A stretch of 25,422 nucleotides of DNA from a virus. Of the stretch, positions 3,094 through 7,041 are shown in pieces. Under the pieces are notes generated by a model that saw only the letters and a program-made list of their open reading frames with translations, did not search any database and was not told where the DNA came from. The DNA is taken from UHGV virus genome UHGV-0247665, one strand, 5' to 3'. The position numbers were made by a program, and so were the translations under genes. Each line of letters begins with the position of its first letter. The stretch's first letter is position 1.

Positions 3094-3312
3094 ATGTTTA
3101 AATTTGATATGCAACTCAACCAAAACTATGCCTCTTTTTACCATCCAGAAACTGGTAAAGCTGTTTTCGTTGACTCTTTCGATAATGAAGAATTTGATAT
3201 CAGAATTGGGACCCTACGCCAAAGTAAGCATGTTGCTACTGTACGTGCATCCAATGATGATGAATTAAATCAAAAAATAAGTGAGGCGACCTCCCGTTAT
3301 CTATGTCTATAA
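3094..3312 (+). CDS. Hypothetical protein (72 aa), first gene of an AT-rich two-gene cassette
   Basis: ORF track 3094..3312; strong SD GGGAGG 5 nt before the ATG. Local GC is well below the flanking phage DNA. No recognisable family. Confidence 0.6.
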   Translation: MFKFDMQLNQNYASFYHPETGKAVFVDSFDNEEFDIRIGTLRQSKHVATVRASNDDELNQKISEATSRYLCL

Positions 3313-3680
3313 CAGAACAACAACTCATTGATCTTGAGGATGAGATTAACGAGATCTTGCAAGAAGATGCGGCAAGAATTCACTTTTCATTTCACGCAGC
3401 ATATGAACGCCTGAACGACGAGAGGAACAAACCGCCAATTACTCTTGCTGAGCTTGAAGATGTGTTTAAATCGTTTATATCTGCACATCTGCAGACTGTT
3501 TTGGATTTTGCTGAAGGTACAACTTTCACCATAAAGTGCAACAAAAGCGCCCTTCATTTTCCTTGCGCCATTGTACACGAAAGAGAGTTTGGGAAAACGT
3601 GGGTTATCCAAAACGTCATTACAGCCATGAGGAAAGTGGGATTCAAGTCTAAAGATTCTATTATCCTCGAAGTTAATTAA
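3303..3680 (+). CDS. Hypothetical acidic protein (125 aa), second gene of the cassette, translationally coupled
   Basis: ORF track 3303..3680. Its ATG at 3303 overlaps the upstream stop at 3310-3312 (ATGTCTATAA) with no independent SD in range. Followed directly by a terminator. Confidence 0.65.
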   Translation: MSITEQQLIDLEDEINEILQEDAARIHFSFHAAYERLNDERNKPPITLAELEDVFKSFISAHLQTVLDFAEGTTFTIKCNKSALHFPCAIVHEREFGKTWVIQNVITAMRKVGFKSKDSIILEVN

Positions 3681-3701
3681 GCCCGCACTGAGGGCTTTTT
3701 T
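3679..3701 (+). terminator. Intrinsic terminator (AAGCCC-gcactga-GGGCTT then TTTT)
   Basis: 6-bp stem with a 7-nt loop and a U-run immediately after the TAA at 3678-3680. Confidence 0.6.
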
Positions 3702-3773
3702 ATGGACGAAACAAAAGTCAGTGCTACACTCATTGACGCCACATTGAGGTGGCTTATAGATGGAAATTTCACA

Positions 3774-3935
3774 ATGAAAAAAGCATTTGCTGCACTGTTC
3801 GTTTTGTTGTCTCTGGTAGCTTCAACTCAGGCCTTTGCCGGTCGTTGTCAGCACGACAGCGACACTGCTGCTGACGGCTCCCGCTGCGGTGGGCGTTCTG
3901 CGGATTCCCGCCCGGGTGGCGGTGGCATTCGTTAA
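3774..3935 (+). CDS. Small secreted protein (53 aa precursor; Sec-type signal peptide, about 31-aa Gly/Arg-rich mature part with two Cys)
   Basis: Internal ATG of ORF track 3702..3935. MKKAFAALFVLLSLVASTQAFA is a canonical signal peptide with an AxA cleavage motif; the mature part is GRCQHDSDTAADGSRCGGRSADSRPGGGGIR. Possible promoter TTGACG (3733-3738) and TATAGA (3755-3760). The SD is weak. Confidence 0.5.
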   Translation: MKKAFAALFVLLSLVASTQAFAGRCQHDSDTAADGSRCGGRSADSRPGGGGIR

Positions 3936-3958
3936 AAACAAGGCCGCGAAAGCGGCCT
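3931..3958 (-). terminator. Intrinsic terminator for the minus-strand lipoprotein gene (7-bp GC stem with GNRA-type loop, U-run on the minus strand)
   Basis: AGGCCGC-GAAA-GCGGCCT at 3941-3958. On the minus strand it is followed by TTGTTTTTAAC. It sits between the convergent genes ending at 3935 (+) and 3967 (-). Confidence 0.55.
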
Positions 3959-3970
3959 GTGACATGTCAC
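3959..3970. repeat. 12-bp perfect palindrome GTGACATGTCAC (copy 1)
   Basis: Exact match; contains the TGA stop of the lipoprotein gene. Confidence 0.6.
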
Positions 3971-4347
3971 GCAACGCAATTATTACCGCGCCATGTAACA
4001 TTTTTAATAATCTTATCAGCACCAAACTCAACGTAAACAGAGCAACTGAAATGGAGTGTATAACCGCCATCAGTTGTTGCGTATGTGTTTGAATATATAG
4101 TATTACCAATTAGATTAGACGTAGTATTATACGTTGTGGTTTGTGGTACGTTATAACTACCAGAGCTTGAGTAAACATACACTCTGTTTCCATCTGGAGA
4201 TGTAAGCTCTCCCTGAGGATACCCCCACTGCTGAACCATTGCGTCTATACTCTGCCCGCGCCACGTAAGCATATTTCTTTCAAACTGTGCAGCTGACTGG
4301 CATCCAACGAGAAGCATAAATCCAAAAATCAAAAATACTTTTCTCAT
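3967..4347 (-). CDS. Outer-membrane lipoprotein (126 aa); candidate lysogenic-conversion or superinfection-exclusion protein
   Basis: In frame within ORF track 3967..4383. The ATG at 4347 is preceded by GGGGG with a 5-nt spacer. N-terminus MRKVFLIFGFMLLVGCQSA carries a lipobox (LLVGC). The mature part is Ser/Thr/Asn/Tyr-rich. The stop codon lies inside the GTGACATGTCAC palindrome. Confidence 0.75.
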   Translation of the reverse strand: MRKVFLIFGFMLLVGCQSAAQFERNMLTWRGQSIDAMVQQWGYPQGELTSPDGNRVYVYSSSGSYNVPQTTTYNTTSNLIGNTIYSNTYATTDGGYTLHFSCSVYVEFGADKIIKNVTWRGNNCVA

Positions 4348-4432
4348 AATTACCCCTATCATGGAAAAACAGCACCAATCCACAAATTAACTAGTTATTT
4401 TATTATTCTTCCGAACAATACAATTCCGAATA

Positions 4433-4555
4433 CTACAAAGCCGAACCATGCCGCTGCACGCAACAGAGATTCCAATTGAAACCCATTTTTATCAAAATGT
4501 ATGAATAGCATAAAAACGCTGCACATATTAGTACAATAAAAGTTATTTGAACCAT
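4433..4555 (-). CDS. Small hydrophobic membrane peptide (about 40 aa), not in the ORF track
   Basis: Tandem ATGs at 4558 and 4555 (minus) lie 2 and 5 nt after the SD AAAGGAG, which itself directly follows the TAA of the 824-aa gene. Reading frame MMVQITFIVLICAAFLCYSYILIKMGFNWNLCCVQRHGSAL*. It is in a different frame from ORF-track entry 4395..4583, which lacks an SD. Confidence 0.45.
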   Translation of the reverse strand: MVQITFIVLICAAFLCYSYILIKMGFNWNLCCVQRHGSAL

Positions 4556-4566
4556 CATATCTCCTT

Positions 4567-7041
4567 TTATTGCGGAGTGACATCCTGTGGTCGCCACCAG
4601 TATGTCTGGTTAAACTCTTTCTTCGAACGTTGCTCCATTTTACGCAAATAGCCTGGTGAAAAATACTCCTGCATCTGGTTAAAGATCATGTGATCGAGAG
4701 CCGCCTTCAAGTACCAGAGATTCGCACCAGGCATCAAACCTTTCCCCAGCTTCACCAGATCACCACCAGTCTGCTCACTCTTCCCTTCCACAGCATTTAA
4801 CGGTATGCCCTGAGCAATCTTCACTACGTCATCAACCAGACCAGCTACCGGGCCAAGCATCGACGCCAGCGCGCCGCTTCCGTACCTAGTGTGATCTGAC
4901 AATAAAAAGTCACCGTAAAGGCCAAGACCACCACCTTTCAGTAGAGCACCAAGCCAGAATTTTGCGGCATCTTCTCCTGTCATCTCTCGAGGATTACGAC
5001 CAGACGCAAGGTCGTTAAGTTGCTGCGACAAAGCGCCAAGAATGGTCGTACTGGCAATAAACGTCGCAATATATGCCGCACGCCCACCAGCAGACGGCAT
5101 ACCCATAGCGCGTGACCAGTGACGCATAACAACCGAGATAGGGAACGATTTAAACAGGAAAACACTTCTCGTTAATTCACCTTTCCATGTTCCACGCTGA
5201 ATACCAGAACCGGTTATCAGTTGCTCACGTGCTCCCGGTGTAATAACAGCCATATCAACTTCTTCAGTTACGGCACCGAGCAGTTTACGCATTGCCTCAA
5301 ATTTCACGCGTTCAGGCTCACCAAGATGTTTAACTGCTGAATCAGAGATACGCATAATGCTTTCCGGTGTCAGCATCGTATTATTACCGTTCCCCCAGTC
5401 CTCCTGTTTCGCCAGCTTCCATACGCTCCAGTCTGTGTCAGTAATCCCTTTGCTTTTCAGGATACGAAAATCAGAGTCATCGAGGCTACGAAGGTCTGGT
5501 GTCCGTGACACTACTTCTCCCAGGCTTCCCATCATGGTTACGCCATAGGCGCGCTTGTGCGCATCTGACCATGCTGTAAGCCCACTGGCACGCATTACCG
5601 CCGTTGCCGCCCAACGAGACACTGACGGCCCCATATTATCCATCGCCCAGCGGTTAACGCTGCCAAGTAGAGATTCCATCGCCAGACCAGCGCGGCGCGC
5701 CCGCGCAAGTTCTGTACGGTTCGTTGGGTCCATAGCTTCAAGCTGGTTGCGGAATAACTGGTTCATTGGAAGGTTGGTAACCTTCGCAGACAGATACATG
5801 GTTCCAAGATCAGAGAACGATGACAGCAACGCGGATCCGAGTCTGCTGGCAACCAGCCAGTTGCGGATATTGTCAGACCATCGCGCGATGTGCGGATTCG
5901 CTACAGGCTGTGTCTTTCCGGAAATAAAGTTGTACAGATTCTCTGTGTTGTTCGCCAGCCGCTCGACTTTACCGGTTTTACTCGGGTTAGCTGTTGCCGT
6001 TTCTGCCTTCACCTGATCAAGAAGAGAGCGGAAAACATGATCGGGGTTTGGGCCATATGTTTCCACCAGTGCAATATCTTTACTGATACCTTCCAGGTGA
6101 CCGACCATGATTTCCCATAGAGAGCGATCGCCATAAAGTTGCTGATATTGCAGATAGGAATCTGCATCTTTGAAATGTATCTGTCGTGATGCATTACCAC
6201 GGTTAGCACGTGCGCCGGAAATTCGCATTCCGGTATCAGTAAGCTTATTCAGCCCACCAGTAGCGATCGTGTTATAAGCCTCTCCAAGAAATGAAGACAA
6301 CTCGGCATCGTTCATCAGTTGTCCATCGGCTCGGATATAATATTTGCGATCCAGCTTACCTATAACATCGCTAACCCACTTATCCTTTGATACTGCCCCA
6401 ACCTTTTCCATAGAATGATGTTGAGGGATCCCCCAGTTTTCGAGATAGCCAATGTCCCCACCAGCATCATTAAACCGGCGGCGCAGCAGCTCTGTAACTT
6501 CTCTCCACGCCTTAGCACCGTTTCTTGCTTTAGCATTGCCAGTATTTTGCCCCCGCATTTCATATACCAGGTCACGTACGCCCGCTTCATCTTCAAACAG
6601 ACCAAAAAAGCGAGGATCAACTGCTTCGAATGCCTCCTGCAATTGACTCAATGCATAATCACGGGTGGCTTTTGTTCTGGATTCAACAGAGAGGAAATTA
6701 GATTTACCGTCTGCATTAAAAGCTATAGTACGGTTAAGAGCGCCAAGTTTCCCATCAGCCCCTTGATAGCTATTGATAAATTTATCCAATCTCTGACGCG
6801 CGGCTATAGTGAGAGCCACACGACGTTTCTTTAATGCCGCTTCTCGCTGTAATTCTTCAGATGCCAATTGTGCTGCTCGATATAGCCGCTCTGATTCGGA
6901 AAGTTGTCGCCACGACATAGGGTCATCACGAGCAATGGAGCGCATATTTCGATAAATGCGGTCTTCAATGTTCTGTATTTCTCGCGCCGTTAACATGCGC
7001 TGCGCCGCCTGCTGAACCGCTTGTATACATTCCTGTCTCAT
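4567..7041 (-). CDS. Internal virion / ejection protein (824 aa)
   Basis: ORF track. Last large gene of the minus-strand core-protein block, with a Gly-rich hydrophobic C-terminal region typical of membrane-inserting ejection proteins. Functional analogue of T7 gp14-16 by position and size only. Confidence 0.75.
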   Translation of the reverse strand: MRQECIQAVQQAAQRMLTAREIQNIEDRIYRNMRSIARDDPMSWRQLSESERLYRAAQLASEELQREAALKKRRVALTIAARQRLDKFINSYQGADGKLGALNRTIAFNADGKSNFLSVESRTKATRDYALSQLQEAFEAVDPRFFGLFEDEAGVRDLVYEMRGQNTGNAKARNGAKAWREVTELLRRRFNDAGGDIGYLENWGIPQHHSMEKVGAVSKDKWVSDVIGKLDRKYYIRADGQLMNDAELSSFLGEAYNTIATGGLNKLTDTGMRISGARANRGNASRQIHFKDADSYLQYQQLYGDRSLWEIMVGHLEGISKDIALVETYGPNPDHVFRSLLDQVKAETATANPSKTGKVERLANNTENLYNFISGKTQPVANPHIARWSDNIRNWLVASRLGSALLSSFSDLGTMYLSAKVTNLPMNQLFRNQLEAMDPTNRTELARARRAGLAMESLLGSVNRWAMDNMGPSVSRWAATAVMRASGLTAWSDAHKRAYGVTMMGSLGEVVSRTPDLRSLDDSDFRILKSKGITDTDWSVWKLAKQEDWGNGNNTMLTPESIMRISDSAVKHLGEPERVKFEAMRKLLGAVTEEVDMAVITPGAREQLITGSGIQRGTWKGELTRSVFLFKSFPISVVMRHWSRAMGMPSAGGRAAYIATFIASTTILGALSQQLNDLASGRNPREMTGEDAAKFWLGALLKGGGLGLYGDFLLSDHTRYGSGALASMLGPVAGLVDDVVKIAQGIPLNAVEGKSEQTGGDLVKLGKGLMPGANLWYLKAALDHMIFNQMQEYFSPGYLRKMEQRSKKEFNQTYWWRPQDVTPQ

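Follow-up and report, generated by a model that had tools for sequence, protein, structure and literature searches.

A prophage gene for a small, predicted-exported two-cysteine peptide from a widespread mini-domain family

UHGV-0247665 is a virus genome of 25,422 nucleotides (this whole stretch is the window below) that carries the genes of an epsilon15/phiV10-like temperate podophage. Between the gene for an 824-residue virion protein and the BRO/Ant gene of the accessory region lies a short open reading frame (ORF). Judged by its sequence and its relatives, its product is very probably an exported, cleaved mini-protein encoded by a moron, that is, an autonomous prophage accessory gene. The gene, its start codon, its export signals, its family with the architectures found there, and its association with prophages were established in silico. 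Beyond this, we lean somewhat towards a reading in which the autonomous moron supplies an exported periplasmic binder of a conserved envelope component, to the advantage of the lysogen. The initial annotation had described a Gly/Arg-rich peptide with a 31-residue mature part and two cysteines, and we counted two Cys, eight Gly and five Arg. Its proposal of a small Sec-exported peptide encoded in a prophage accessory region also agrees with the comparative evidence, which predicts export. The peptide gene and its control elements comprise the following features.

3774-3935, plus strand: coding sequence of the 53-residue pre-peptide, stop codon included; supported by RefSeq coding sequence WP_000708858.1 at the equivalent position, by PHROG 14503 and by the ratio of nonsynonymous to synonymous substitution (dN/dS)
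3774-3839, plus strand: predicted signal peptide of 22 residues with n-region MKK, h-region AFAALFVLLSLVA and c-region STQAFA; from sequence and family comparison
3840-3932, plus strand: predicted mature peptide of 31 residues, GRCQHDSDTAADGSRCGGRSADSRPGGGGIR; 3060 Da, pI 8.1
3846-3920, plus strand: conserved mini-domain from Cys25 to Gly49, C-x4-D-x-A-x-D-G-S-R-C-G-x-R-x4-R-P-G-G, with a presumed Cys25-Cys38 disulfide
3679-3702, plus strand: intrinsic terminator of the upstream gene for a 125-residue protein, AAGCCCGCACTGAGGGCTT plus T-run; from a terminator scan and folding
3722-3730, plus strand: putative -10 element TACACT (3725-3730) with TG at 3722-3723 (extended -10); TAnnnT conserved
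3738-3753, plus strand: short GC stem-loop GCCAC-ATTGAG-GTGGC where the mRNA is predicted to begin, 6-7 nucleotides past the -10 element
3762-3766, plus strand: weak Shine-Dalgarno-like GGAAA, 8-12 nucleotides upstream of the ATG
3941-3958, no strand assigned: GC-rich hairpin AGGCCGC-GAAA-GCGGCCT, seven pairs, -17.9 kcal/mol; from a terminator scan and folding

The coding sequence, its start and its control elements

The listed ORF occupies 3702-3935 on the plus strand (77 codons), and the initial annotation began its feature at 3702. The ORF is present as described; by comparison with its relatives, the true start of the gene is the ATG at 3774 rather than the one at 3702. This in-frame ATG opens a product of 53 residues in total, MKKAFAALFVLLSLVASTQAFA (signal part) followed by GRCQHDSDTAADGSRCGGRSADSRPGGGGIR (mature part), and the stop codon lies at 3933-3935. 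Both WP_000708858.1 and gp43 of TL-2011b have the 53-residue form, which favors the start at 3774, as does the finding that homologues from a dozen genera align from MKK onward and have unrelated sequence before it in different lineages. The position of the upstream ATG points the same way, since it comes right after the T-run of the upstream gene's terminator (3679-3697) and the 72 bases between the two ATGs hold conserved noncoding signals. The 24 extra codons (3702-3773) lack conservation and contain the conserved -10 element and the 5' hairpin. We therefore rejected a start at 3702, whose unconserved extension overlaps both of these elements and adjoins the upstream T-run. The initial annotation had allowed for a better-supported start at 3702, and the lineage-specific extensions, the 53-residue RefSeq form and the conserved -10 element with its hairpin all speak for 3774 instead.

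Substitution patterns were analyzed in 14 copies from Enterobacterales and Tolumonas, with the core taken as 25 codons. In the core, the proportion of synonymous differences (pS) is 0.71, with synonymous sites saturated, the proportion of nonsynonymous differences (pN) is 0.11, and dN/dS is about 0.05. The signal-peptide codons are more relaxed, with dN/dS about 0.17. An alignment of the DNA shows two-in-three conservation, with the variation at third positions. By this pattern the peptide gene is real, coding and under strong purifying selection. The two hairpins of the module, and the retention of its terminator part alone in phiV10, might instead recommend an untranslated ORF inside a conserved RNA, regulatory or terminator element. 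That alternative is essentially refuted by the codon-periodic substitutions, the saturated synonymous sites and the dN/dS of 0.05; homologues conserved at the protein level across phyla with unrelated DNA also stand against it, and the peptide-gene block has no match in Rfam.

The upstream terminator forms the left edge of a conserved mobile block, and the same element is found in the Klebsiella copy. Downstream of it, 13 enterobacterial copies that otherwise fail to align in their flanks all have T3725, A3726 and T3730. The predicted transcription start falls near 3736-3738. A 5' hairpin of 4-7 base pairs is predicted equally far from the ATG in 11 of 14 taxa; in a twelfth, the predicted stem is a marginal one of 3 bp. 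The stems are built from at least five different sequence pairs (GCCAC/GTGGC, GCCGTC/GATGGC, GCCGC/GCGGC, TTGCC/GGCAA and CTGCT/GGCAG). This comparison suggests that 3722-3753 comprises a putative promoter -10 element and a 5'-terminal mRNA stem-loop. The hairpin could stabilize the mRNA or, alternatively, be a palindromic operator. Another promoter candidate, TTGACG at 3733-3738 with TATAGA at 3755-3760, was dropped because neither hexamer is conserved in relatives. At the spacing of the weak Shine-Dalgarno-like sequence, relatives carry purine-rich GGA, GGT, AGG or AAGGA.

At the other end of the gene, the hairpin at 3941-3958 separates the stop codon of the peptide gene from that of a convergent lipoprotein gene. 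Its U-run lies on the minus strand only (AGGCCGCTTTCGCGGCCT TGTTTTT), the plus-strand continuation being TGTGACATG, and the hairpin is therefore a good terminator leftward and a weaker one for the peptide gene. phiV10 lacks the ORF but keeps this hairpin, annotated "terminator", and relatives carry compensatory stem variants. The hairpin is part of the peptide module and marks the end of the mobile block on the right, at about 3971. The initial annotation had the two genes converging on a shared terminator. The stops do converge with the hairpin between them; the sharing is an accident of this prophage. The lipoprotein gene occurs in only 7 of 88 peptide-bearing loci, always together with an unannotated 41-codon hydrophobic ORF, and its convergence with the peptide gene is thus incidental. 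The G+C content reaches 64% at 3826-3975, which covers the mature-peptide codons and the terminator, compared with 35-42% in the flanks within the accessory region. This peak is partly forced by the Gly/Arg/Ala/Asp-rich sequence and may also reflect a GC-rich donor lineage.

Signal peptide, mini-domain and family

Signal peptidase I is predicted to cut after Ala22, at the end of A-F-A and before Gly. The h-region, AFAALFVLLSLVA, has 13 residues, and its maximal ten-residue Kyte-Doolittle mean of 2.92 equals the family median. Among 174 distinct presequences of the family, the -3 position (five residues before the first Cys) is A, S, V, T or G in 92%, and the -1 position (three residues before that Cys) is A, S or T in 89%. 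A Lys or Arg falls within five residues of the Met in 154 of them. The presequence otherwise varies freely, A-x-A is kept directly before G-[NPRS]-C, and the mature part is near-invariant. The lipobox pattern [LVI][ASTVI][GAS]C is absent from the window peptide, which reads F-A-G-R-C with Arg at -1. Most relatives have A-G-N-C, with Asn at -1, and likewise show no lipobox there.

These features bear on whether the signal peptide is removed. NCBI names the identical RefSeq protein WP_000708858.1 "transmembrane anchored protein", gp43 of TL-2011b belongs to the same family, and the names given to these entries ("transmembrane anchored" or "membrane associated protein") imply an uncleaved signal-anchor that displays the 31-residue tail on the periplasmic face of the inner membrane. 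Membrane tethering of the domain in some relatives would fit this picture. We consider it quite unlikely: the hydrophobic core has only 13 residues and ends in the conserved A-x-A|G site, and the anchored relatives use a separate C-terminal helix as their anchor, a cleavable-looking signal peptide still preceding the core. The names themselves lack an experimental basis. They are automatic annotation and appear misleading, as the sequence does not support an anchor. A cleaved, soluble product is more probable than a "transmembrane anchored" one.

An AlphaFold2 model of the peptide is a compact irregular loop. Its confidence (predicted local distance difference test, pLDDT) is 81-85 over the disulfide loop and about 65 or less in the tail. 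A Foldseek search of the model against the PDB gave no fold match, and neither single-sequence nor profile searches found a match among PDB sequences. Pfam (tried on 30 members), NCBIfam and PADLOC hold no family for the peptide. PHROGs returned only three uncharacterized families: 14503 (E = 2.3e-40, residues 1-53 on 1-53 of 53), labeled "membrane associated protein" in the moron category; 3117, which models the over-long 77-residue reading; and the distant 27544. PHROGs 14503 and 3117 and the NCBI cluster represent the same gene family, grouped automatically. Weak matches to MarB, HxsA3, Spackle, PepSY_2 and spanin models were judged to be signal-peptide noise.

The family itself extends far beyond chance similarity, as judged from the searches. 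From the single sequence, homologues were found down to E = 2e-26, in about 57 clusters in Enterobacterales that are all unnamed or called "transmembrane anchored protein". A profile search returned 1133 clusters at 90% identity (E <= 1), and an exhaustive HMMER scan returned 592 representatives at 50% identity (E <= 0.001), from Proteobacteria and Cyanobacteria. A pattern search over one genome per species added relatives in Rhizobium, Mesorhizobium, Bradyrhizobium, Agrobacterium, Devosia, Methylobacterium, Microvirga, Kaistia and Aureimonas, and further ones in Vibrio, Tolumonas, Rhodoferax, Bacteriovorax, a Polyangiaceae metagenome-assembled genome and several cyanobacteria. The core consensus is C-x4-D-[RT]-A-[AS]-D-G-S-R-C-G-x-R-x4-R-P-G-G, with invariant or near-invariant positions, and alignments across Proteobacteria and Cyanobacteria always show C, A, D, G, S, C, G, R, G and G. 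In most short members one residue follows the core before the stop; sometimes there is none, or there are up to four, as in the window.

One further hit was set aside. P0232 is a eukaryote-like protein of 805 residues with 11 tandem Cys-rich repeats (...CDYPSSPTTNGSLCTGRPDG...) that matches the peptide profile at E = 1e-9, and its local pattern C-x-Y-P-...-G-S-x-C-x-G-R resembles the peptide core. With 11 partial matches, it looks like a chitin-binding-type repeat protein, and we treat it as a false positive.

The core occurs in several architectures among 251 motif-bearing proteins. Short pre-peptides like that of the window account for 168. In another 35 the core comes right after the signal peptide, and a long extension follows towards the C-terminus. 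Among those whose sequences were read, this extension is mostly a transmembrane helix with a cytoplasmic domain of 100-200 residues (P0162, P0166, P0181), and in others a proline-rich linker with a beta-rich periplasmic domain (P0167, P0171, P0176). A third class, also of 35, comprises longer proteins with a C-terminal core, some with two cores (P0139, P0155, P0174), and the remaining 13 fall outside all three classes. Cyanobacterial members often have an upstream lipobox (ITSC, LTAC). Because the core is found free, lipid-tethered, helix-tethered and fused, it appears to be a modular, independent extracytoplasmic binding unit. On this comparison, the window peptide is the free soluble form of an extracytoplasmic mini-domain of about 26 residues.

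The extra domains of the membrane-anchored and fused relatives have no match in Pfam, NCBIfam, PHROGs or the PDB. Ten of these relatives (P0162, P0163, P0166, P0181, P0183, P0184, P0188, P0199, P0210 and P0251) are type I membrane proteins in which the signal peptide is followed by the mini-domain, ...RNPDTDW, a transmembrane helix and an uncharacterized cytoplasmic domain with GGN-x-[YF]DAA-x-x-Y. At loci L143, L148 and L150-L152 they recur in a cluster of small uncharacterized genes that includes one for an SNase-family nuclease; the metagenomic contigs there are short and otherwise uninformative.

Two likenesses to known motifs were also considered. The resemblance to the Excalibur or DxDxDG family of extracellular calcium-binding motifs (PF05901) is superficial and lies between D-R-x-x-D-G-x-x-C and D-x-D-x-D-G-x-x-C-E, each in a small extracytoplasmic module with Cys. 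Membership was rejected because the third ligand position is an invariant Ala and 30 members gave no Pfam match at E <= 10. An analogy with the loop of Ivy was rejected on motif or context grounds.

Prophage setting and distribution

Escherichia phage Phi05_1387 B and a prophage of E. coli Es_ST80 match the window over 3300-4400 with 100% identity. Besides the 824-residue virion protein (phrog_684), nearby genes encode internal proteins of 600 and 837 residues and an 823-residue tail protein, and the 837-residue internal/virion protein has a transglycosylase-like region. In the closest E. coli prophages, an endosialidase tailspike bounds the accessory region on the far side. A block of about 290 bp (about 3680-3971) is common to prophages with differing neighbors, including TL-2011b, where these are a YafO-like toxin gene and ant. 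Flanking hairpins, variable neighbors, insertion between phage genes and atypical G+C content together give this block the marks of a moron.

Of 5426 complete E. coli genomes, 422 (about 8%) contain at least 80% of the module. The gene is also found in 12 sequenced E. coli and Klebsiella phages, in 307 IMG/VR contigs and in prophages of Klebsiella, Salmonella, Cronobacter, Pectobacterium and rhizobia. Plasmid-labeled records account for three of the 543 genomic places in E. coli; one example is the 38.7-kb NZ_CP076267.1, whose size suggests an extrachromosomal or circularized form of the same phage and not a true plasmid.

Among the E. coli carriers are K1 extraintestinal pathogenic (ExPEC)/meningitis strains and avian pathogenic (APEC) strains, such as CE10 and APEC O1. 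This carriage, together with the general precedent of lambda bor and lom, could point to a factor for host fitness or virulence, acting in serum or antimicrobial-peptide resistance or in envelope-stress modulation in ExPEC, and not against phages. Bacteria that are associated with plants or live in soil or water, and cyanobacteria as well, carry an almost identical peptide. Since it is conserved in such environmental organisms, a role specific to animal hosts is improbable, and we regard a virulence or fitness function as unlikely.

The association with prophages extends across classes of hosts, and the peptide gene travels mainly on prophages and other accessory DNA. A location in a prophage, near tail-fiber or ejection-protein genes, was found in all enterobacterial contexts examined and in three of the four alphaproteobacterial contexts checked closely. 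In Rhizobium ruizarguesonis (L141, 1055-6908), the peptide gene lies between a tail-fiber gene and a homologue of the 824-residue protein (27% identity, E = 6e-72), which is the corresponding slot of a prophage only distantly related to that of the window, though the relative orientation is reversed. The copies in Microvirga, Methylobacterium and Pectobacterium belong to other prophages, where tail-fiber, ejection, SLT or lysis genes are close by. Other copies adjoin GmrSD, NERD, an insertion-sequence-type helix-turn-helix gene, a Prim-Pol/AAA_25 primase or a glycosyltransferase.

A BRO/Ant homologue is nearby in 86 of the 88 peptide-bearing loci, and in 55 the 824-residue virion protein is encoded within 4.5 kb. 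An all-against-all comparison of the ORFs within 5 kb in 57 genome loci found no conserved partner gene beyond the epsilon15-like virion genes. This bears on a further possibility, that the gene encodes a secreted communication signal like the arbitrium peptide AimP, with the processed C-terminal ...RPGG-x end as its active part. A Sec pre-peptide of about 50 residues in temperate phages, ending in x-R-P-G-G-x, would suit such a role, and this ending resembles the xxxxG[GA] arbitrium peptides. The idea is nonetheless very improbable. The gene has neither an adjacent receptor gene nor any conserved neighbor, and the whole mature region with its cysteine pair is conserved, not only a short tail. 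In addition, the peptide is near-identical in unrelated phages and hosts, which would abolish signaling specificity, and membrane and periplasmic proteins contain the domain in fused form.

The genes that flank the module in the window are the following.

3967-4347, minus strand: convergent lipoprotein gene, 126 residues, lipobox LLVGC, product starting MRKVFLIFGFMLLVGC; phrog_3716, unknown function
4433-4558, minus strand: unannotated 41-codon ORF, MMVQITFIVLICAAFLCYSYILIKMGFNWNLCCVQRHGSAL, with a strong Shine-Dalgarno sequence AAGGAG at 4561-4566
3094-3312 and 3303-3680, plus strand: overlapping upstream genes for proteins of 72 and 125 residues; PHROGs 14630 and 14518

The 126-residue lipoprotein has no family in Pfam or NCBIfam and no homologue in 59 other species-representative or alphaproteobacterial loci. 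The 41-codon ORF lies between the 824-residue virion gene and the lipoprotein gene, where RefSeq annotates nothing. It is present in the same 7 of 88 loci as the lipoprotein gene, at 98-100% identity, and has no PADLOC match; its product is probably a small membrane protein. Upstream, the genes for the 72- and 125-residue proteins occur together in 8 of 88 loci and have no match in Pfam, NCBIfam or PADLOC.

In the Methylobacterium prophage (L146), a second small ORF at 6850-6999, encoding the secreted-looking Gly/His/Arg-rich MKKAFAAISAALVIASVFATAADARGRTGSHRVGGTNSHGKGSHYYGGR, lies directly upstream of the peptide homologue. Its stop abuts the next start, and the two may form a two-peptide operon. 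A DarT/Macro pair is located 6 kb away.

A possible function at the envelope

We propose the following course of events. An autonomous prophage accessory gene, consisting of promoter, 5' hairpin, 53-codon ORF and hairpin terminator, would express a pre-peptide that the Sec pathway would export and that signal peptidase I would cleave after Ala22. The 31-residue product would be freed into the periplasm, where the Dsb system would oxidize Cys25 and Cys38 to close a 14-residue disulfide loop. The prophage-expressed peptide would then bind, and mask or modify, a conserved component of the Gram-negative envelope. The lysogen would gain at the envelope, most plausibly through a blocked penetration step of superinfecting phages or other mobile elements. 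Of this course, we infer transcription from the gene's own promoter, Sec export, cleavage, the disulfide, periplasmic action, the ligand and the phenotype.

The choice of target follows from the pattern of conservation. Between Rhizobiales and E. coli, which are hosts of different classes, the peptide core is 50-90% identical and the adjoining virion protein falls to 27%. A factor directed at a phage-specific protein should diversify together with that protein. As the core stays nearly unchanged while phages and hosts diverge, the target is likely to be a conserved envelope component and not a phage-specific protein; on the sequences compared, we hold a host envelope target to be moderately more probable than a phage-specific one. 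An anionic or zwitterionic ligand, for example the stem peptides of peptidoglycan or the phosphates of lipopolysaccharide, would match the four conserved Arg and two conserved Asp, although this is speculation.

Classical prophage morons such as lambda bor and lom encode exported host-conversion proteins of the envelope. Like them, the peptide gene is an independent unit between virion genes, with atypical G+C content, a predicted exported product and presumed expression in the lysogen. In contrast to the products of bor and lom, the peptide is far smaller (31 residues), unrelated in sequence and probably soluble, not a lipoprotein or an outer-membrane barrel, and it is conserved across phyla rather than within one phage group. 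The moron concept has been summarized (PMC3573123), and an exported prophage moron is a known kind of element.

Two phage systems offer closer functional comparisons. In P22, sieA lies between the ejection-protein and tailspike genes, by the ant region, which corresponds to the interval of the peptide gene. P22 SieA excludes superinfecting phages and acts on the variable ejection proteins gp16 and gp20 (PMC10461980). SieA is a prophage-expressed envelope protein of a short-tailed temperate phage, as the peptide would be. SieA is a polytopic inner-membrane protein, whereas the window peptide is probably soluble, has no sequence similarity to it and does not co-vary with ejection proteins (27% identity for the virion protein, about 50-80% for the peptide). 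The second system is T4 Spackle (gp61.3), which inhibits the tail lysozyme gp5 in the periplasm (PMC7677548, PMC7650644). Spackle is likewise a small Sec-exported phage protein of the periplasm and is the nearest mechanistic precedent for a soluble exclusion factor. It differs in being helical, about 10 kDa and from a lytic phage, and it has no detectable likeness in sequence or fold to the window peptide.

By analogy, the peptide probably protects the lysogen at the envelope; the P22-like interval, the defense-type neighbors and the periplasmic precedent of Spackle are the grounds for this view. The more specific phenotype, exclusion of phages or other mobile DNA, is a tentative suggestion. 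Within it, the peptide might inhibit peptidoglycan hydrolases in the manner of Spackle or Ivy, acting in the periplasm against the virion-borne lytic transglycosylase or lysozyme that incoming phages bring. Nearly all phages of Gram-negative bacteria have muralytic domains in their virions, which would fit a conserved target, the window's own 837-residue virion protein has its transglycosylase-like region, and Spackle acts in the periplasm (PMC7677548). We nevertheless find this sub-case improbable. Only 1 of 30 members shows any likeness to Spackle or Ivy, a chance-level match to T4_Spackle (E = 0.065). The family as a whole does not keep the His of the enterobacterial CQHD, and an inhibitor of this kind could hinder the prophage's own lysis.

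Several points weigh against the proposal of a periplasmic envelope binder. Export, cleavage and expression are predicted, and the phenotype is a proposal. The AlphaFold2 model is moderately confident overall (pLDDT 76), and a consensus promoter scan made no call for the putative -10 element at 3725-3730, which has no recognizable -35 partner. No likeness to a known exclusion or defense protein was found in sequence, profile or fold (PADLOC, Pfam, PDB), and literature searches by motif, accession and name did not find the family. Proteins of the SieA type co-vary with their phage targets and the peptide does not, which would argue for a host target. Finally, some relatives are not obviously phage-borne (one Mesorhizobium copy and the cyanobacterial fusion proteins), and phages may merely have borrowed a domain with a housekeeping role in the cell.

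The annotated gene was already known. What is new is its start, the anatomy of its putative promoter and hairpins, its probable cleavage, the domain of about 26 residues absent from Pfam, NCBIfam and the PDB, and the hundreds of diverged representatives and several architectures of that domain, as well as the recurrence of the peptide, traced by sequence, in prophages from Enterobacterales to Rhizobiales. The gene occurs in E. coli, including pathogens, yet it is labeled "hypothetical" or misleadingly named. Nothing in these findings conflicts with current understanding; the family is sizeable, constrained, tractable and uncharacterized. At 31 residues with one disulfide, the peptide can feasibly be synthesized, so that ligand fishing, nuclear magnetic resonance and phage-exclusion assays would be cheap. 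The boldest version of the proposal is doubtful: a new self-folding extracytoplasmic binding domain whose free form, used by temperate phages and other mobile elements of Gram-negative bacteria, would be the smallest known soluble periplasmic exclusion factor, working across phyla and blocking a conserved envelope step needed by incoming phages or DNA-transfer machines. Should the peptide have no measurable effect, it would still represent a well-defined and strongly conserved small phage gene. If it does bind a universal envelope ligand, it would provide a new small binding module and a new route by which prophages remodel the periplasm.

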